Both the position numbers and the translations under genes were made by a program. From Escherichia phage Ec_YwIITB1: a DNA stretch of 64,000 bases. Below the pieces are notes generated by a model. That model saw nothing but the letters and a program-made list of their open reading frames with translations, was not told the origin of the DNA and made no database searches. Shown here piece after piece: positions 1 to 43,814 of this stretch. Each line of letters starts with the position of its first letter. The first letter of the stretch is position 1. The stretch lies in sequence record PQ356294.1. One strand, given 5' to 3'.

Positions 1-734
1 GAATTCCTGTAACTCGTGCAGTAGATAATTTAGTTAACTGGAGAACTGCAGCAGGTTCATACACTGATAATAACTTTAATATCAGTTCAACCTATGCAGC
101 AATCGATGGCAACTACAAATATCAGTATGACAAATATAATGATGTAAATCGTTGGGTTCCATTAGCTGCTGACATTGCTGGTTTATGCGCAAGAACTGAT
201 AACGTTTCTCATACTTGGATGTCTCCGGCTGGTTATAATCGTGGTCAAATTCTTAACGTTATTAAACTTGCTATTGAAACTCGCCAGGCGCAGCGCGATC
301 GTTTATATCAAGAAGCTATCAACCCGGTAACTGGTACAGGTGGCGATGGTTACGTATTGTACGGTGATAAAACAGCTACTTCTGTTCCTTCTCCGTTTGA
401 TCGTATTAACGTTCGTCGTCTGTTTAATATGTTGAAAACGAATATCGGACGTAGTTCAAAATATCGTTTATTCGAATTAAACAACGCGTTTACTCGTTCA
501 TCGTTCCGCACAGAAACTGCCCAATACTTACAGGGAATTAAAGCTCTCGGTGGAATTTATGAATATCGTGTAGTTTGCGATACAACAAATAATACTCCGT
601 CAGTAATTGATAGAAATGAGTTTGTTGCAACATTCTACATTCAACCGGCTAGAAGCATTAACTACATTACCTTAAACTTCGTAGCAACTGCTACTGGTGC
701 AGATTTCGATGAGTTAACTGGTCTTGCAGGTTAA
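1..734 (+). CDS. 18: Tail sheath protein gp18, C-terminal part (5' end lies upstream of window)
   Basis: Frame open from window start to TAA at 732-734; translation recognisable as conserved T-even tail sheath C-terminus; directly precedes tail tube gene. Confidence 0.9.
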   Translation, partial: IPVTRAVDNLVNWRTAAGSYTDNNFNISSTYAAIDGNYKYQYDKYNDVNRWVPLAADIAGLCARTDNVSHTWMSPAGYNRGQILNVIKLAIETRQAQRDRLYQEAINPVTGTGGDGYVLYGDKTATSVPSPFDRINVRRLFNMLKTNIGRSSKYRLFELNNAFTRSSFRTETAQYLQGIKALGGIYEYRVVCDTTNNTPSVIDRNEFVATFYIQPARSINYITLNFVATATGADFDELTGLAG

Positions 735-740
735 TTGATT

Positions 741-1391
741 ATGGGGCTTCGGCCCCTATTCTCGAGGAAACAAGTGATTATTTCTAAGTTTGTTAAAGTG
801 AAAATTGTACCATCAAATTTTAAACATTATCAATCAAAGGGTTATAAATTAACACCTCTTGGAGCGGTTAAACATGGATTTAGGTATTATGAAATTGATG
901 TTAAAGTTGAAGACATTAAAGGTAATACCGCGTATGTAAAATGCCGTTGCGATAAATGTGGAATTGAATATAACCAACGCATTGGAAGAAACACTGATAT
1001 TTGTCGTGATTGCCGTCATAAAGATAAAATGCGCAATAATTCATATGGTTCCGCGAATAAAGGAAAAACAGTAGAATGTATGCATGGCGTAAATCATCCA
1101 AGATGGAACCCAAATAAATCTGAAATGCGTGAATATATTTCATTGGTATATAAAGAAACTCGTAAGCATAAGAAAATTTGGTCAAAATGGCCAAATGCTG
1201 ATAAAATAGGAGTGTGCGGTACAAAAGGTGCTTACCAACTTGATCATAAGGTATCTATCAAATACGGTTTTGATAATTTAATTCCTGTTGAAATAATTGG
1301 CGGTATTAATAATTTAGAAATAATCACTTGGGAATCTAACCGAGAAAAATCAAAAAGAAATAGTGTAGATCTTTGGGATTTACTAGAATGA
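741..1391 (+). CDS. HNH-family (putative homing) endonuclease with N-terminal Cys-rich zinc-finger region; free-standing between genes 18 and 19
   Basis: ORF 735..1391; first ATG at 741; Cys cluster CRCDKCG...CRDCRH; C-terminal HNH-like motif QLDHKVSIKYGF...NNLEI..W.SN; position atypical for T4 backbone. Confidence 0.7.
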   Translation: MGLRPLFSRKQVIISKFVKVKIVPSNFKHYQSKGYKLTPLGAVKHGFRYYEIDVKVEDIKGNTAYVKCRCDKCGIEYNQRIGRNTDICRDCRHKDKMRNNSYGSANKGKTVECMHGVNHPRWNPNKSEMREYISLVYKETRKHKKIWSKWPNADKIGVCGTKGAYQLDHKVSIKYGFDNLIPVEIIGGINNLEIITWESNREKSKRNSVDLWDLLE

Positions 1392-1417
1392 TTCTAAAGG
1401 CCTGTTTCGGCAGGCCA

Positions 1418-1425
1418 TATAAATA
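1418..1425 (+). promoter_or_regulatory. Late promoter motif TATAAATA (first of two upstream of gene 19)
   Basis: Exact TATAAATA downstream of HNH gene hairpin. Confidence 0.5.
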
Positions 1426-1476: not shown

Positions 1477-1484
1477 TATAAATA
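1477..1484 (+). promoter_or_regulatory. Late promoter TATAAATA for gene 19
   Basis: Exact TATAAATA about 15 nt upstream of gp19 start. Confidence 0.65.
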
Positions 1485-1498
1485 CTACAGAGGCTAAT

Positions 1499-1990
1499 AT
1501 GTTTGTAGATGATGTAACACGAGCGTTTGAATCTGGTGATTTTGCTCGACCTAACTTATTCCAAGTAGAAATTTCTTATCTTGGACAAAATTTTACGTTT
1601 CAATGTAAAGCCACTGCTTTACCAGCTGGTATTGTAGAAAAAATTCCAGTCGGTTTTATGAACCGTAAAATTAACGTAGCAGGCGATCGTACATTCGATG
1701 ACTGGACTGTTACAGTAATGAACGATGAGGCACATGATGCTCGCCAGAAGTTTGTTGATTGGCAAAGCATTGCTGCTGGGCAAGGGAACGAAATTACTGG
1801 TGGAAAACCAGCAGAGTATAAAAAGAGTGCTGTTGTTCGCCAATATGCTCGTGACGCTAAAACTGTAACAAAAGAAGTTGAAATTAAAGGCCTGTGGCCT
1901 ACTAACGTGGGTGAACTTCAATTAGATTGGGATTCAAACAATGAAATCCAAACCTTTGAAGTAACTCTCGCTCTCGATTATTGGGAATAA
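1499..1990 (+). CDS. 19: Tail tube protein gp19
   Basis: 163-aa ORF matching T4 gp19 (MFVDDVTRAFESGDFARPNLFQVEISYLG...); TATAAATA late promoter upstream. Confidence 0.95.
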   Translation: MFVDDVTRAFESGDFARPNLFQVEISYLGQNFTFQCKATALPAGIVEKIPVGFMNRKINVAGDRTFDDWTVTVMNDEAHDARQKFVDWQSIAAGQGNEITGGKPAEYKKSAVVRQYARDAKTVTKEVEIKGLWPTNVGELQLDWDSNNEIQTFEVTLALDYWE

Positions 1991-2022
1991 AATGAATGGG
2001 GAGAAATCCCCATCCTGCTTAA

Positions 2023-3648: not shown

Positions 3649-3887
3649 TGGAAGGTTTAATTGAAGCTATTAAATCAAACGACCTCGTAGCCGCTCGTAA
3701 ATTATTTGCTGAAGCCATGGCTGCAAGAACGACTGATTTAATTAAAGAAGAAAAAATCGCTATCGCTCGTAATTTCTTAATCGAAGGTGAAGAACCTGAT
3801 GACGAGGATGATGACGAAGACGAAGATAGTGATGATAAAGACGACAAAAAAGACAAAGACTCTGACGAAGACGAGGATGATGAATAA
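3648..3887 (+). CDS. 67: Prohead core protein gp67 (acidic C-terminus)
   Basis: 79-aa ORF with Asp/Glu-rich tail; position between 20 and 68. Confidence 0.85.
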
Positions 3888-4312
3888 TGCTTCTGATCCC
3901 TGAAACTCATGAATTGGTTCTCGAGAATGTCGAAGCACTTATTCCTGAAGCACAGGGTCGCTTTGACGAATTGTCTTCTGCTTTAAATAAAGACGATATA
4001 AATACAATTGTCGAGAATATGCTTGATGATGAAACTGATTTAGCGGTTGCATTAGCTTCTATTAATGAAAATATGCCGTTAAATGAATTTATCGTTAAAC
4101 ATGTTTCTGCCCGTGGTGAAATTACTCGCACCAAAGATCGCAAAACCCGCGAACGTAATGCATTTCAAACTACCGGGTTGTCTAAAGCAAAACGTAGACA
4201 AATTGCTCGTAAAGCTACCAAAACGAAGATTGCCAATCCAGCAGGTCAATCTCGTGCTCAGCGTAAGCGTAAAAAAGCTCTTAAACGCCGTAAAGCATTA
4301 GGATTAAGCTAA
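3887..4312 (+). CDS. 68: Prohead core protein gp68
   Basis: 141-aa ORF, ATGA-type coupling with neighbours; conserved order. Confidence 0.85.
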
Positions 4313-4950
4313 TGAATGAACCCCAATTACTAATTGAAACTTGGGGTCAACCTGGCGAAATTATTGATGGCGTACCAATGCTTGAATCTCATGATGGAAA
4401 AGACTTAGGTTTAAAACCGGGTTTATACATCGAAGGAATATTCATGCAAGCGGAAGTCGTCAATAGAAATAAACGTCTTTATCCAAAACGTATATTAGAA
4501 AAAGCGGTAAAAGACTATATTAATGAGCAAGTTTTAACTAAACAAGCTCTCGGAGAATTAAATCATCCTCCACGCGCTAATGTTGACCCGATGCAAGCCG
4601 CTATCATTATAGAAGATATGTGGTGGAAAGGAAATGACGTATACGGACGAGCTCGTGTTATTGAAGGTGACCACGGTCCTGGAGATAAATTAGCAGCTAA
4701 TATTCGTGCCGGATGGATTCCAGGAGTTTCTTCTCGTGGATTAGGTTCATTGACTGACACAAATAAAGGTTATCGTATCGTAAACGAAGGATTCAAATTA
4801 ACTGTAGGTGTTGATGCAGTATGGGGTCCAAGTGCTCCAGATGCATGGGTAACTCCTAAGGAAATTACCGAATCACAGACGGCGGAAGCCGATACAAGTG
4901 CCGATGACGCCTATATGGCTCTCGCAGAGGCCATGAAAAAAGCGTTATAA
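4312..4950 (+). CDS. 21: Prohead core scaffold protease gp21
   Basis: 212-aa ORF matching T4 gp21. Confidence 0.95.
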   Translation: MNEPQLLIETWGQPGEIIDGVPMLESHDGKDLGLKPGLYIEGIFMQAEVVNRNKRLYPKRILEKAVKDYINEQVLTKQALGELNHPPRANVDPMQAAIIIEDMWWKGNDVYGRARVIEGDHGPGDKLAANIRAGWIPGVSSRGLGSLTDTNKGYRIVNEGFKLTVGVDAVWGPSAPDAWVTPKEITESQTAEADTSADDAYMALAEAMKKAL

Positions 4951-4953
4951 ATA
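4946..4953 (+). promoter_or_regulatory. Late promoter TATAAATA for gene 22
   Basis: Exact motif 27 nt upstream of gp22 ATG. Confidence 0.65.
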
Positions 4954-4980
4954 TTATTATCTAAACAACAGGACTACAAA

Positions 4981-5790
4981 ATGCTTAAAGAACAACTGAT
5001 TGCTGAAGCGCAAAAAATTGATGCTTCCGTTGCTCTTGATAGTATTTTCGAATCAGTTAATATTTCTCCGGAAGCAAAAGAAACTTTCGGCACTGTATTC
5101 GAAGCTACCGTCAAGCAGCACGCCGTTAAATTAGCTGAATCTCATATCGCTAAAATTGCTGAAAAAGCAGAAGAAGAAGTAGAAAAAAATAAAGAAGAAG
5201 CCGAAGAAAAAGCTGAGAAGAAAATCGCTGAGCAAGCTTCTAAATTCATCGACCATCTTGCAAAAGAATGGCTCGCTGAAAATAAATTAGCAGTTGATAA
5301 AGGCATCAAAGCCGAACTATTTGAATCCATGCTTGGTGGATTAAAAGAGCTCTTTGTTGAACACAACGTTGTTGTTCCAGAAGAATCAGTTGATGTTGTA
5401 GCTGAAATGGAAGAAGAGCTGCAAGAACATAAAGAAGAATCAGCTCGTCTGTTCGAAGAACTCAATAAGCGTGACGCATATATCAATTATGTGCAGCGTG
5501 AAGTGGCATTGAGCGAAAGTACTAAAGATCTGACTGAGTCTCAAAAAGAAAAAGTCTCTGCTCTGGTCGAAGGTATGGATTATTCAGATGCATTCTCAAG
5601 TAAATTGAGTGCCATCGTAGAAATGGTGAAGAAGTCTAATAAAGATGAAAGCACTATTACTGAGGGTATAAATACTCCTGATACTGAAGCAGCCGGACTG
5701 AATTTCGTCACTGAAGCTGTAGAAGATAAAACTGCACCTGGTGCAGAAGATATTGTAAGTGTATATGCGAAAGTCGCATCTCGTTTCTAA
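4981..5790 (+). CDS. 22: Prohead scaffolding core protein gp22
   Basis: 269-aa Glu/Lys-rich coiled-coil protein; TATAAATA upstream. Confidence 0.9.
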   Translation: MLKEQLIAEAQKIDASVALDSIFESVNISPEAKETFGTVFEATVKQHAVKLAESHIAKIAEKAEEEVEKNKEEAEEKAEKKIAEQASKFIDHLAKEWLAENKLAVDKGIKAELFESMLGGLKELFVEHNVVVPEESVDVVAEMEEELQEHKEESARLFEELNKRDAYINYVQREVALSESTKDLTESQKEKVSALVEGMDYSDAFSSKLSAIVEMVKKSNKDESTITEGINTPDTEAAGLNFVTEAVEDKTAPGAEDIVSVYAKVASRF

Positions 5791-40323: not shown

Positions 40324-41498
40324 TTAAAAATATTTTTTAAAACTCATCATAACTTTATCATCAACATCATTATCAATCTGTGCTACAAGATAAGATGACA
40401 GTTCTACTTCTTGCGGCGCGGATTGAACATTATCAGAATTAAGATATTCACGAATCCAAGGATACGGGTGTTTAACCGGAGCATCGGTAATTGGGCATGG
40501 AAGACCACACTGTTTCATACGAGATACAGTTAAGTAATCAATAAAGTTCCACATGCTATTTGTATTTAATCCAGGAACATCGCCATCTTTAAATAAATGA
40601 ACTGCCCAGTCTTTTTCTTGGCGGTTAACTTCCATGAAAATATCAACTGCTTCTTGTTCACACTCTTGGGCGATTTTAACCCATTCATCACCATCAGTGC
40701 CAAGTTGAAGTTGACGAATAATATATTGGGTGCCTTTAAGGTGAAGCTGTTCATCACGTGCAATGAACTTCATAATCTTGGCATTACCTTCCATGATTTC
40801 CATGTTTTTATGGAAGTTAAAGGTACATGCGAAAGATACGTAAAAACGAATAGCTTCCAGTGCGTTGATTACATGCAGACAAAGGTAAAGAGAACGCATT
40901 AGTTCACGTTTCCAATACATTTCATGCTCTATGGCATCTTTAATATCATCTTCGTCTGCGTTAATTTCTTTTTGGTACTCAATATCAGCTTTAGCATTCT
41001 GCCACGAGTTTTCTCAATAACATCATCATAGTAACGACCAATAGATTCAGCACGTTTCATGATAGCTTTATCTAATACAATCTCATCAAATACTTTTGAC
41101 GGATCAGTATAAAGATTCCGCATGATATGAGTGTATGAACGACTGTGAATAGTTTCGCTAAAAGTCCATGTAGCAACCCATGTATCAAGGCTTGGGTCTG
41201 AAATTAACGACATAAGTACAGCAGACGGTGCACGACCCTGAATGCTATCCAAAAGTGATTGATACTTCAGGTTATTAGTAAAAATATCTTGCTGATACTG
41301 AGGAAGCTTGTTAAATTGTGCAGCATCCATCATCAAGTTTACTTCTTCAGGACGCCAGAAAAATGACAACTGCTTTTCGGTTAAATCTTCAAAAACTTTA
41401 TGGCGTTGAATATCATAACGCGCAATACCAAGACCTGAACCGAAGAACATAGGTTCTTTTAAAACATCAACTGGATTTGTATTAAAAACTGTGCTCAT
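40324..41498 (-). pseudogene. nrdB: Ribonucleotide reductase beta subunit NrdB, intron-less, with apparent net -1 frameshift near 40994 in the sequence as given
   Basis: ORFs 40929..41498 (N-terminal 165 aa good, then out-of-frame tail) and 40324..40920 (C-terminal part) together span about 388 codons; pseudogene or sequencing error. Confidence 0.85.
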
Positions 41499-41549
41499 AA
41501 ATTTTCCGCTTAGTTAATAGATAGTGACTCATCCGTGAGTCAAATTATA

Positions 41550-43814
41550 TCATAATTTACAGGATGAACAATCTTCAGCTTTTGGAGTTTCTATTTCATA
41601 ATCATCAGTACCAGAACCGTCACGGGTATTATGATAATAGAAATTTTTTCCGCCAAAATACCAAAAATACAAAAGGTCATCAATCATTATTGACATTGGA
41701 ACCTTTCCTTTTGGAAAAATCTGCGGGTCATAATATGTATTCGCTGAAGCTGATTGACACACCCATTTCAGCATAATAGCTACTTGCGTAAGATAAGGTT
41801 TATTGCCTTTCTTAGCTAATTTCCATGTATAATCATAGAGGTCTATGTTGTGCTCAATATTGGGCACGACTTGATTAAAGGAGCCCTCTTTTGATTCTTT
41901 AACAGAGACTGGTCCACGTGGAGGCTCGATACCGTTTGTACTGTTAGAAACTTGGGAAGATGACTCACATGGCATAAGTGCTGATAATGTGCTATTACGG
42001 ATGCCAAAGAGCTTAAGGTCTTCCCGCAGCGACGACCAGTCACAAACGTATTTTGGAGCTGCGATTTGGTCAATCTTTTTATTGTACCAGTCGATAGGTA
42101 ATTCGCCTCGAGACCAACGAGTGTCTGAATAATATTCGCAAGGTCCTTTTTCTTTGGCGAGCTTAATGGATGCTTTAATGAGTCCATACTGTAGTCTCTC
42201 AAATAGTTCATGTGTTAAATCGTTAGCATCTTCATAAGAAGCAAAATTACTTGCCAGCCAAGCTGCATAGTTAGTAACACCTACGCCAAGGTTTCGACGT
42301 TTTTTAGCTTTTTCTGCTTCAGGAACTGGATATCCTTGGTAATCCAAAAGATTATCAAGAGCACGAACTTGGACTTCTGCCAATTCATTAATTTTATCTT
42401 GGTCTTGCCAATCGAAGTTATCTAACACAAATGCAGATAACGTACACAATCCAATTTCAGCATCAGGACTATTCACATCATTTGTTGGAATAGCAATTTC
42501 ACAACACAAGTTGCTCTGACGAATAGGTGCCTTTTCACGAATAAACGGAGTATAGTTATTCGTATTATCTATGAACTGTACATAAATCCTTGCTGTTCCT
42601 GAGCGTTCAGTCATGAGCAATTCAAACAGTTCACGGGCTTTAATACGCTTTTTACGAATATTAGGGTCTTTTTCTGCAGCTTCATATAATTCACGGAAAC
42701 GGTCTTGGTCTTTAAAATAAGAATAGTAAAGTTCGCCACCCATTTCATGCGGACTGAACAAAGTAATGTAATCATTCTTTCCAAATCGTTCCATCATCAA
42801 ATCATTCAGCTGGACGCCATAATCCATATGACGGATACGGTTTTCTTCTACACCTTTGTTATTTTTCAAAACGAGAAGATTTTCAACTTCCAAATGCCAA
42901 ATAGGATAATAAGCAGTAGCAGCGCCGCCACGAATTCCACCCTGTGAGCATGATTTAACAGCAGTTTGAAAATGTTTCCAAAAAGGAATAACACCAGTAT
43001 GACGTACTTCACCTGTGCCAATCTTAGAACCTTCGGCACGAATCATACCAACGTTAATACCAATTCCAGCGCGTTTGGAGATATACTCAACAATTGAAGC
43101 GGAAGCCTTATTGATAGACTTTAATGAATCACCTGCCTCAATAACAACGCATGAACTAAACTGCCGAGTTGGAGTACGGCAACCAGCCATAATAGGGGTT
43201 GGCAGTGAAATCTGTCGAGTAGATACTGCTTCATAAAAACGAATAACGTGTTTTAATCTATCAACAGGTTCATCTTGATGCAATGCCATTCCAATAGTCA
43301 TAAATGCAAACTGTGGAGTTTCATAAATTTGACCAGTGGTTTTATCTTTAACTAGATATTTTTCTTTTAATTGCATCGCCCCGGAATAAGTAAATTCCAT
43401 ATCCCGTTCGTGCTTAATTTTTGATTCTAAAAATGTAATTTCTTCTGCTGAATATTTTGACAACAATTCAGGGTCGTATTTACCTTCATTTACACAGTAA
43501 GAAATATGGTCAATAAATGAACGTGGTTCATACTGCCCGTAAACATGCTTACGAAGAGCGAACATTAAGCAGCGTGCAGCTACATATTGATAATCAGGCT
43601 CTTCAACTGAAATAGAATTCGCAGCAGCCTTAATTACAATGGTTTGAATGTCATCAGTTGTCATTCCATCACGGAGATATGATTTAATATTTTCATATAA
43701 TTCATAAGGATCTACAGATGTTCCTTCAGCTGCCCAAGATAAAACTTTAATAATTTTTTGTGGGTCAAAGCTCTGAGAAACACCACTACTTTTGATAACA
43801 TTAATTAATTGCAT
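41550..43814 (-). CDS. nrdA: Ribonucleotide reductase alpha subunit NrdA
   Basis: 754-aa ORF matching T4 NrdA. Confidence 0.95.
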   Translation of the reverse strand: MQLINVIKSSGVSQSFDPQKIIKVLSWAAEGTSVDPYELYENIKSYLRDGMTTDDIQTIVIKAAANSISVEEPDYQYVAARCLMFALRKHVYGQYEPRSFIDHISYCVNEGKYDPELLSKYSAEEITFLESKIKHERDMEFTYSGAMQLKEKYLVKDKTTGQIYETPQFAFMTIGMALHQDEPVDRLKHVIRFYEAVSTRQISLPTPIMAGCRTPTRQFSSCVVIEAGDSLKSINKASASIVEYISKRAGIGINVGMIRAEGSKIGTGEVRHTGVIPFWKHFQTAVKSCSQGGIRGGAATAYYPIWHLEVENLLVLKNNKGVEENRIRHMDYGVQLNDLMMERFGKNDYITLFSPHEMGGELYYSYFKDQDRFRELYEAAEKDPNIRKKRIKARELFELLMTERSGTARIYVQFIDNTNNYTPFIREKAPIRQSNLCCEIAIPTNDVNSPDAEIGLCTLSAFVLDNFDWQDQDKINELAEVQVRALDNLLDYQGYPVPEAEKAKKRRNLGVGVTNYAAWLASNFASYEDANDLTHELFERLQYGLIKASIKLAKEKGPCEYYSDTRWSRGELPIDWYNKKIDQIAAPKYVCDWSSLREDLKLFGIRNSTLSALMPCESSSQVSNSTNGIEPPRGPVSVKESKEGSFNQVVPNIEHNIDLYDYTWKLAKKGNKPYLTQVAIMLKWVCQSASANTYYDPQIFPKGKVPMSIMIDDLLYFWYFGGKNFYYHNTRDGSGTDDYEIETPKAEDCSSCKL

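Follow-up and report, generated by a model that had tools for sequence, protein, structure and literature searches.

Between the tail sheath gene (18) and the tail tube gene (19) of Escherichia phage Ec_YwIITB1 lies a gene that we read, with a probability of roughly two in three, as a free-standing homing endonuclease of the family of phage T6 'ORF19.1', a family otherwise uncharacterised. It occupies positions 774-1391 of the stretch of DNA analysed here (one strand, 64,000 nt, record PQ356294.1; hereafter the window), which opens inside gene 18. The source phage is a Tequatrovirus, and the window is 97-98% identical to Shigella phages sb1 and sb3 and to many other T4-like phages. T-even phages are well known for free-standing homing endonucleases, and an element of this kind is ordinary for them; the ORF19.1 family itself has never been studied. 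A search of the accessible literature for experimental work on any family member found none, and the database records examined assign no function to ORF19.1.

Gene anatomy and boundaries at the sheath-tube junction

A first-pass annotation, made from the letters of the sequence, had placed a mobile HNH endonuclease gene at positions 735-1391, and an intact open frame is present there between genes 18 and 19. The features of the locus are as follows.

1-734, plus strand: 3' part of gene 18, tail sheath (open reading frame list; 99% tblastn identity to T4 gp18)
732-734, plus strand: gene 18 stop codon TAA (read from the sequence)
735-1391, plus strand: open frame of 218 aa from TTG 735 (open reading frame list)
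735-1390, plus strand: segment of 656 nt missing from T4, which has TACGGTGC in its place (junction comparison with T4 and five gene-free Tequatrovirus loci)
743-756, plus strand: UUCG-tetraloop hairpin GGGGC-UUCG-GCCCC in the 5' leader (-10.8 kcal/mol, z = -2.3)
764-767, plus strand: Shine-Dalgarno motif GAGG, 6 nt before the GTG (read from the sequence)
774-1391, plus strand: gene of the ORF19.1 family, GTG start, 205 codons, TGA at 1389-1391 (homologues starting MIISK, note in the T6 record, dN/dS)
1399-1416, plus strand: second UUCG hairpin, GGCCUGU-UUCG-GCAGGCC (-12.8 kcal/mol, z = -2.9; identical in T4)
1418-1425, plus strand: late-promoter motif TATAAATA, first of two before gene 19 (identical in T4)
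1477-1484, plus strand: late-promoter motif TATAAATA, second before gene 19 (identical in T4)
1499-1990, plus strand: gene 19, tail tube (open reading frame list; 99-100% identity to T4 and T6 gp19)

In T4 (NC_000866) there is no gene between 18 and 19 and the spacer measures 117 nt, which bears out the compact T4 junction assumed in the first-pass annotation. When the two junctions are aligned, a single replacement separates them: the 656 nt at window positions 735-1390 stand against an 8-nt T4 sequence, and this 8-nt spacer recurs in five further gene-free Tequatrovirus contigs. Upstream of the replaced segment the end of gene 18 is almost identical to that of T4. Downstream of it 170 nt are identical, including the UUCG hairpin and both TATAAATA motifs, the hairpin directly following gene 18 in T4, and the last base of the TGA stop codon is the first base that the window has in common with T4. 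The alignment of the 18-19 junction across T-even genomes, which the first-pass annotation had suggested, yields exact boundaries (656 nt versus 8 nt) and supports the conclusion that the gene is optional relative to T4, with razor-sharp ends. No paralogue of the ORF was found within the 64-kb window.

The gene is present in ~125 of ~497 Tequatrovirus-level records (about 25%), and not, as had been considered in advance as grounds for doubt, in most T-even genomes as an orthologue devoid of nuclease homology. Of 15 junctions sampled from IMG/VR contigs with gene 19 as anchor, one was occupied (L019); this contig comes from another lineage, in which the sister genomes L018 and L020 have an empty junction. 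In the course of these comparisons, records named 'Staphylococcus phage SAJK-IND' and 'Pseudomonas phage PsgM02F' were seen to match the 18-19 region at 97.8% and 94.5%, and one named 'Pseudomonas phage vB_PSGBLB0006' to match the T4 nrdA-nrdB region at 92.7%; for the GenBank records with odd host names (MG010123, OR584013 and PV654520), the host labels look wrong, or else the records look contaminated.

Translation very probably starts at GTG 774, 39 nt after the gene 18 stop, rather than at 735 or 741. This placement follows from the homologues, which begin M-I-I-S-K at this point, from the GAGG six nt upstream, from phage phiC600P9, which lacks an ATG at the position equivalent to 741, and from the GenBank entry for the T6 copy, which states that it 'likely begin by GTG codon'. 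The first-pass annotation had the ORF begin within 10 nt of the gp18 stop and had embedded a hairpin in its first codons. The start was misread, and the hairpin, although real, falls in the 5' leader, outside the first codons, if translation begins at GTG 774. It is identical in the T6 allele, and most other occupied loci have a comparable hairpin after gene 18. The second hairpin and the two TATAAATA motifs described before gene 19 were all found.

No clear sequestration of the ribosome-binding site by the leader hairpin was seen, the extended fold being no better than shuffled sequences (z = -0.3). The 39 nt that separate the GTG from the gene 18 stop contain no TATAAATA late promoter, so that expression by read-through from gene 18 transcripts would be the simplest arrangement. 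Further along, the spacer that separates gene 19 from gene 20 has a GC-rich hairpin of its own (GAATGGGGAGAAATCCCCATTC-like, window 1994-2015), followed by TATAAATA at 2038-2045, and the hairpin-then-promoter layout after gene 19 is the same as that after gene 18.

Zinc-finger module and predicted nuclease domain

The protein divides into two parts, joined at a conserved motif.

774-1073, plus strand: N-terminal module, a small beta/alpha region with a CxxC...CxxC zinc finger; presumed DNA-binding/specificity module
948-956 and 1002-1013, plus strand: cysteine codons of the zinc finger
1074-1388, plus strand: C-terminal nuclease-like domain of ~100 residues
1086-1112, plus strand: linker motif G-x-N-H-P-R-W-N-P, with G, R and W invariant (alignment)
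1236-1349, plus strand: beta-beta-alpha core with the D-H...N...N motif

The N-terminal cysteine cluster that had been picked out by eye, CRCDKCG...CRDCRH, is conserved in an alignment of 28 homologues, in which only one of the four paired cysteines varies, and it is kept in at least 90% of the sequences. Sub-threshold matches to DUF4379, a treble-clef zinc finger, were obtained for 11 of these 28 members. In the metagenomic homologue P0024, an internal insertion of ~40 residues duplicates G-E-N-H-P-R-W-N-P, so that the linker motif appears to act like a repeatable module, reminiscent of NUMOD-type repeats.

The C-terminal domain is the most conserved part of the family, its ~100 residues containing an invariant Q-x-D-H, N-L, W, N and K in the 28-homologue alignment. 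In the window protein these residues form QLDHK...NNLEI..W.SN, the HNH-like motif of the first-pass annotation, and none of D, H, N, L, W, N and K varies, either in the 28 homologues or in a more diverse set of 36. A loss of the catalytic His and Asn residues on proper alignment had been named as evidence that would speak against a nuclease; D168-H169, N191 and N200 (numbered from ATG 741) are retained in every sequence of both sets. There are 9 residues between the two Asn, a spacing typical of HNH nucleases.

An AlphaFold model of the protein was of good confidence (pLDDT 85 overall, 90 in the C-terminal domain). In this model D-H lies on one strand, the first Asn opens the second strand and the second Asn sits on the helix that follows. 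As predicted, this layout is that of an HNH (beta-beta-alpha-metal) unit in its H-N-N form, with the fold and the residues that define the His-Me finger superfamily: a catalytic His, as a rule with Asp/Glu before it, on the first strand, a structural Asn just ahead of or within the second, and a His or Asn on the helix as metal ligand. The best two structural matches were the Gme HNH nicking endonuclease 4h9d and the phage GVE2 HNH protein 5h0o, and the ranks below them were enriched in His-Me finger nucleases, among them Cas9 HNH domains, T5 SciA, the SspE C-terminal domain, an Rhs toxin, Vibrio endonuclease I, BrxU, TagI and Cap5, with low scores throughout. A Foldseek search of the full model against the PDB returned nothing.

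Sequence searches gave little to set beside the model. With the window protein as query, Pfam, NCBIfam and PADLOC returned no family and no HNH match; among the 28 members, 1 of 28 reaches HNH_4 (E = 0.078) and 1 of 28 reaches HNH_5 (E = 0.22); and PHROGs places the protein in phrog_5104, of 'unknown function'. A profile search of the PDB found no HNH protein up to E = 10, and PDB sequence searches gave weak zinc-ribbon matches only. Weak zinc-ribbon matches of this kind in the Pfam, NCBIfam, PADLOC and PDB searches neither support nor contradict the nuclease call. Taking the predicted fold together with its invariant residues, an HNH-type assignment of the C-terminal domain is likely.

By profile and domain comparison, the ORF19.1 family is distinct from Mob, Seg and Hef, the groups to which the first-pass annotation had suggested that it be compared. 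The T4 Mob proteins (MobA-E) share with it a free-standing intergenic gene in a T-even genome, a sporadic occurrence among relatives and an HNH-type motif. Membership was rejected after hhalign against MobE, the one member tested, gave a probability of 0.1%. A search of the T4 nrd region with the family profile (hmmsearch) gave no match, and MobE reaches the Pfam HNH model whereas the ORF19.1 family does not. Mob proteins nick their targets, and their layout is reversed in the window gene, where the N-terminal part is the presumed DNA-binding module and the C-terminal part the nuclease domain (PMC2988022). Membership of the Seg (GIY-YIG) group was likewise rejected, none of the 28 members having a GIY-YIG match in Pfam. 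Hef of phage U5 (AY262133) resembles ORF19.1 as a free-standing, optional homing endonuclease gene at an intergenic site of a T-even phage. It is a protein of 544 aa with weak Pfam matches to REase_MTES_1575 and DUF559, which we read as a PD-(D/E)XK/Vsr-like nuclease; its Pfam content differs from that of the ORF19.1 family, and hhalign gave a probability of 0.6%. As a separate observation, the end of nrdA and the start of nrdB lie ~50 nt apart in Ec_YwIITB1 (window 41498-41550), and mobE and nrdB.1, which T4 carries there, and the hef of U5 are all absent, so that this classic homing-endonuclease site is empty.

Two further systems resemble ORF19.1 in design. I-HmuI of Bacillus phage SPO1 is an intron-encoded HNH nickase with an N-terminal nuclease domain, a modular 'beads on a string' architecture that includes NUMOD-type modules, and an H-N-N variant of the motif, in which no Cys zinc site lies inside the beta-beta-alpha core and the metal is held by Asp and Asn. 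Compared by description, the H-N-N motif is common to both, as is a link to NUMOD modules (NUMOD3 is fused to the ORF19.1-family nuclease domain in relatives), while ORF19.1 differs in being free-standing, with its nuclease domain at the C terminus. The CapR/DUF4379-type phage homing endonucleases, mostly unannotated in databases, have N-terminal DUF4379-like zinc fingers followed by a C-terminal nuclease domain of ~100 residues, as here; that domain is of EDxHD/Vsr type, whereas the ORF19.1 domain is predicted to be beta-beta-alpha and HNH-like (PMC12350094).

Locus fidelity, discordant alleles and a hypervariable patch in gene 18

When 1.84 billion cluster representatives were searched with the family profile, 5547 matched at E <= 1e-3 and 1304 at E <= 1e-10. 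Members of the zinc-finger type lay directly after the sheath gene in 18 of 18 IMG/VR loci and in 12 of 12 loci inspected individually, and the same held for every relative of this type that was examined, down to about 30% identity. Among isolates, the gene was found between sheath and tube in T6, Klebsiella phage Roth21, Acinetobacter phage Mokit, Pectobacterium phage POP12, the Dhakavirus phages Bp7 and UP19, Serratia phage CHI14 and Aeromonas phage AS-zj. Sinorhizobium phage phiM19 is the sole exception: there the gene follows the sheath gene, but the gene downstream is not the tube gene. In two environmental contigs, at 31-37% identity, it again follows the sheath gene.

Some of these neighbourhoods contain additional frames. 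On a T4-like contig from a Candidatus Thiodiazotropha MAG (L028), an extra ORF of 115 aa (4564-4911) separates the family member from the tube gene. In Bp7 (L007) an extra hypothetical ORF of 193 aa (3769-4350) lies between the tail tube and portal genes, and the portal gene (4408-5630) is annotated as two CDS; this region may hold another mobile insertion or a split gene.

Relatives that have only the C-terminal domain in common with the window protein carry DUF7487 or a NUMOD3 motif at the N terminus instead of the zinc finger. NUMOD3, a motif that is a hallmark of homing endonucleases, was a Pfam match in P0120, with similar repeats recognised by eye in P0119 and P0121. Proteins with these architectures adjoin other conserved phage genes (encoding the RNR small subunit, baseplate J and 5-hmdU kinase), and the C-terminal domain is also found alone. 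Locus and N-terminal module go together, as they should if the module sets target specificity. The repeated fusion of DUF7487 to the same C-terminal nuclease-like domain (P0036, P0118, P0213, P0216, P0234 and P0254) suggests that DUF7487 is another DNA-binding module of homing-type nucleases.

Alleles of the gene do not follow their flanks. Between Bp7 and UP19 the gp18 C-termini and gp19 are 100% identical and the ORFs 34% identical; between the window and T6 the flanks are 99-100% identical and the ORFs 57%. Each allele has its closest relative in another genus: the window allele is nearest to one from a Klebsiella phage, the T6 allele to a Dhakavirus copy and the Bp7 allele to a copy from a Serratia phage. 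Identity of the N-terminal module was unrelated to flank identity (Spearman 0.05), and identity of the C-terminal domain was modestly correlated with it (0.42). The T6 allele, a member of the same family at the same site, has a leader, hairpin, GTG start and first eight codons identical to those of the window gene, followed by ~130 unrelated-looking N-terminal residues that represent another subtype of zinc-finger module (41% identity) and then by a nearly identical nuclease domain (the last ~75 codons). By this comparison the modules have been cleanly swapped. A gene that only some relatives carry, that has exact boundaries and an intact reading frame, and whose phylogeny disagrees with that of its flanks bears, as read from these genome comparisons, the comparative signature of a homing endonuclease gene. 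The first-pass reading of a mobile homing-endonuclease insertion holds in these respects, with a zinc finger and an HNH-like domain at ~25% occupancy and with alleles discordant with their flanks; its start codon and hairpin placement do not.

A possible target lies within the adjacent sheath gene.

641-683, plus strand: hypervariable, mostly synonymous patch of gene 18, codons for PARSINYITLNFVA; candidate recognition/immunity region
651-680, plus strand: RSINYITLNF codons within the patch

The patch covers 43 nt, 52-94 nt before the gene 18 stop. Across 11 Tequatrovirus sequences, 17 of its 43 sites are variable, compared with 42 of 457 in the rest of the 500-nt flank. Three haplotypes were seen, whose differences are nearly all synonymous, the one exception being a Thr/Gln replacement, and conservation of the peptide PARSINYITLNFVA extends over the whole superfamily. 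A T4-type patch was counted in only 2-4 of ~125 carriers versus roughly 246 of ~372 empty genomes, counts that are estimates from identity bands. Across genera, AAC-TAC/TTC encodes Asn-Tyr/Phe in 4 of 26 occupied loci versus 11 of 16 empty ones (Fisher p = 0.0008, a value that, like the other occupancy/patch statistics, ignores relatedness, in a cross-genus set that holds some duplicate phages). Patch haplotype tracks occupancy, and the patch may be the target of the nuclease. By analogy, it resembles what is found around other free-standing T4 endonucleases, namely co-conversion tracts or target alleles recoded to resist cleavage.

In the Ec_YwIITB1 window the gene stands beside a T4-type patch, as it does in sb1 and sb3, and a simple rule by which every carrier has a recoded patch fails on this ground. 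If the patch is the target, a T4-type and putatively sensitive patch in a carrier is a poor fit to a simple model in which the carrier is immune. Either the empty junction rather than the patch would be the site, or the enzyme would tolerate or also nick its own genome, or the phage would be a recent recombinant.

Alternative explanations and proposed mechanism

Modern database records mostly call the gene 'hypothetical' and in some it is unannotated (RB5-RB10), the few automated annotations being 'homing endonuclease' or 'type II restriction endonuclease'. Such labels would be compatible with a decaying, non-functional remnant or a chance ORF. This explanation is for practical purposes refuted by the conservation data: the gene is under purifying selection, dN/dS being 0.10-0.15 wherever a comparison was informative, 232 of 239 tblastn matches span nearly the full length, relatives number 5547 cluster representatives at E <= 1e-3 and the model is confident (pLDDT 85-90). 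A functional protein could also act without catalysis, as a zinc-finger nucleic-acid-binding regulator that might, for example, adjust sheath-to-tube expression by binding to the gene 19 leader or to the UUCG hairpins, in which case D-H, N and N would be structural only. Two UUCG hairpins do bracket the gene, sequence-level matches are confined to zinc ribbons and treble clefs, and the HNH evidence is weak by score. We nevertheless regard regulation as very improbable, because it is the C-terminal domain that is best conserved, with D-H, N and N invariant in a predicted beta-beta-alpha unit, because the same domain occurs alone or with other DNA-binding modules at loci unrelated to genes 18 and 19, and because T4 regulates these two genes without ORF19.1.

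An accessory nuclease that does not home is an unlikely explanation, though one with more in its favour. Tied to the packaging/morphogenesis block, it would be either a terminase helper, like HK97 gp74 or the HNH protein of Geobacillus phage GVE2, or a weapon used to degrade the DNA of competing phages, with no copying of its own gene, and its distribution would reflect vertical descent with repeated loss. The gene does sit within the block 16-17(terminase)-18-[ORF]-19-20(portal), its fidelity to this locus reaches as far as Sinorhizobium phage phiM19 and environmental T4-like contigs, and the modest correlation of C-terminal with flank identity points the same way. The best structural matches, 4h9d and 5h0o, are small stand-alone HNH nucleases; together with HK97 gp74 they form what we take to be the terminase-associated class of HNH proteins, whose genes adjoin the terminase genes of cos phages and are needed there. 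ORF19.1 is by comparison optional and found in headful-packaging phages, and it is absent from T4, from Acj9 and from ~75% of Tequatrovirus records, an absence from most close relatives that an accessory role leaves unexplained. Packaging in T4-type phages is by the headful mechanism with the nuclease of gp17 itself and involves no such helper gene, which argues against a terminase role. With the gp74 family hhalign gave a non-significant probability of 0.45%, aligning D-H with D-H and N-L with N-W, and the gp74 family alignment has two invariant Cys and an invariant final His, versus the H-N-N core of the ORF19.1 family. Descent with loss also fails to explain grossly discordant alleles between identical flanks.

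We therefore return to a free-standing homing endonuclease as the preferred reading, for which we infer nuclease activity, target site, homing and mode of expression as follows. The N-terminal zinc-finger module would bind DNA and set specificity, and the divergent HNH-type domain (D-H...N...N, beta-beta-alpha-metal) would nick or cut it. During mixed infection with a gene-free relative, the enzyme would cut the genome of that relative where gene 18 ends or close by; candidate sites are the empty junction and the conserved RSINYITLNF stretch, which lies 55-84 nt upstream of where the gene is inserted. Recombinational repair off the carrier genome would then copy the gene, along with some flanking sheath-gene sequence, into the recipient. 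The protein would be made in small amounts, from the GTG start, on late gene 18 transcripts that run on beyond the UUCG hairpin, the gene having no late promoter of its own in its 39-nt leader.

More tentatively, and at odds we would put on the doubtful side of even, ORF19.1 may represent a large, unrecognised superfamily of HNH-like homing endonucleases, with thousands of clusters and no Pfam nuclease model. Its zinc-finger branch would be locked to the sheath/tube junction across the T4 superfamily as a trans-genus polymorphism with at least 3 allele classes; N-terminal modules would be exchanged between genera, re-targeting the most conserved stretch of the sheath gene, and resistant (recoded) and sensitive haplotypes would coexist among gene-free genomes. 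As an argument against homing itself, the strict one-locus fidelity across the superfamily could also mark an old accessory gene with a local function that has often been lost.

For the biology of these phages, a 'hypothetical' gene of hundreds of genomes can now be assigned a testable function, and a nuclease family missed by current profile libraries is defined. The tie to one junction, the module-swapped alleles and the recoded patch of the sheath gene make it a tractable case for local mosaicism and marker exclusion in late genes. To our knowledge, the T4 homing endonucleases studied previously all target DNA-metabolism genes or tRNA regions. If the superfamily reading is true, ORF19.1 would offer a natural system for long-term co-evolution of a homing endonuclease with its target in an essential structural gene. 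In practical terms, the finding bears on the annotation of therapeutic T4-like phages and on how recombination between such phages is read.
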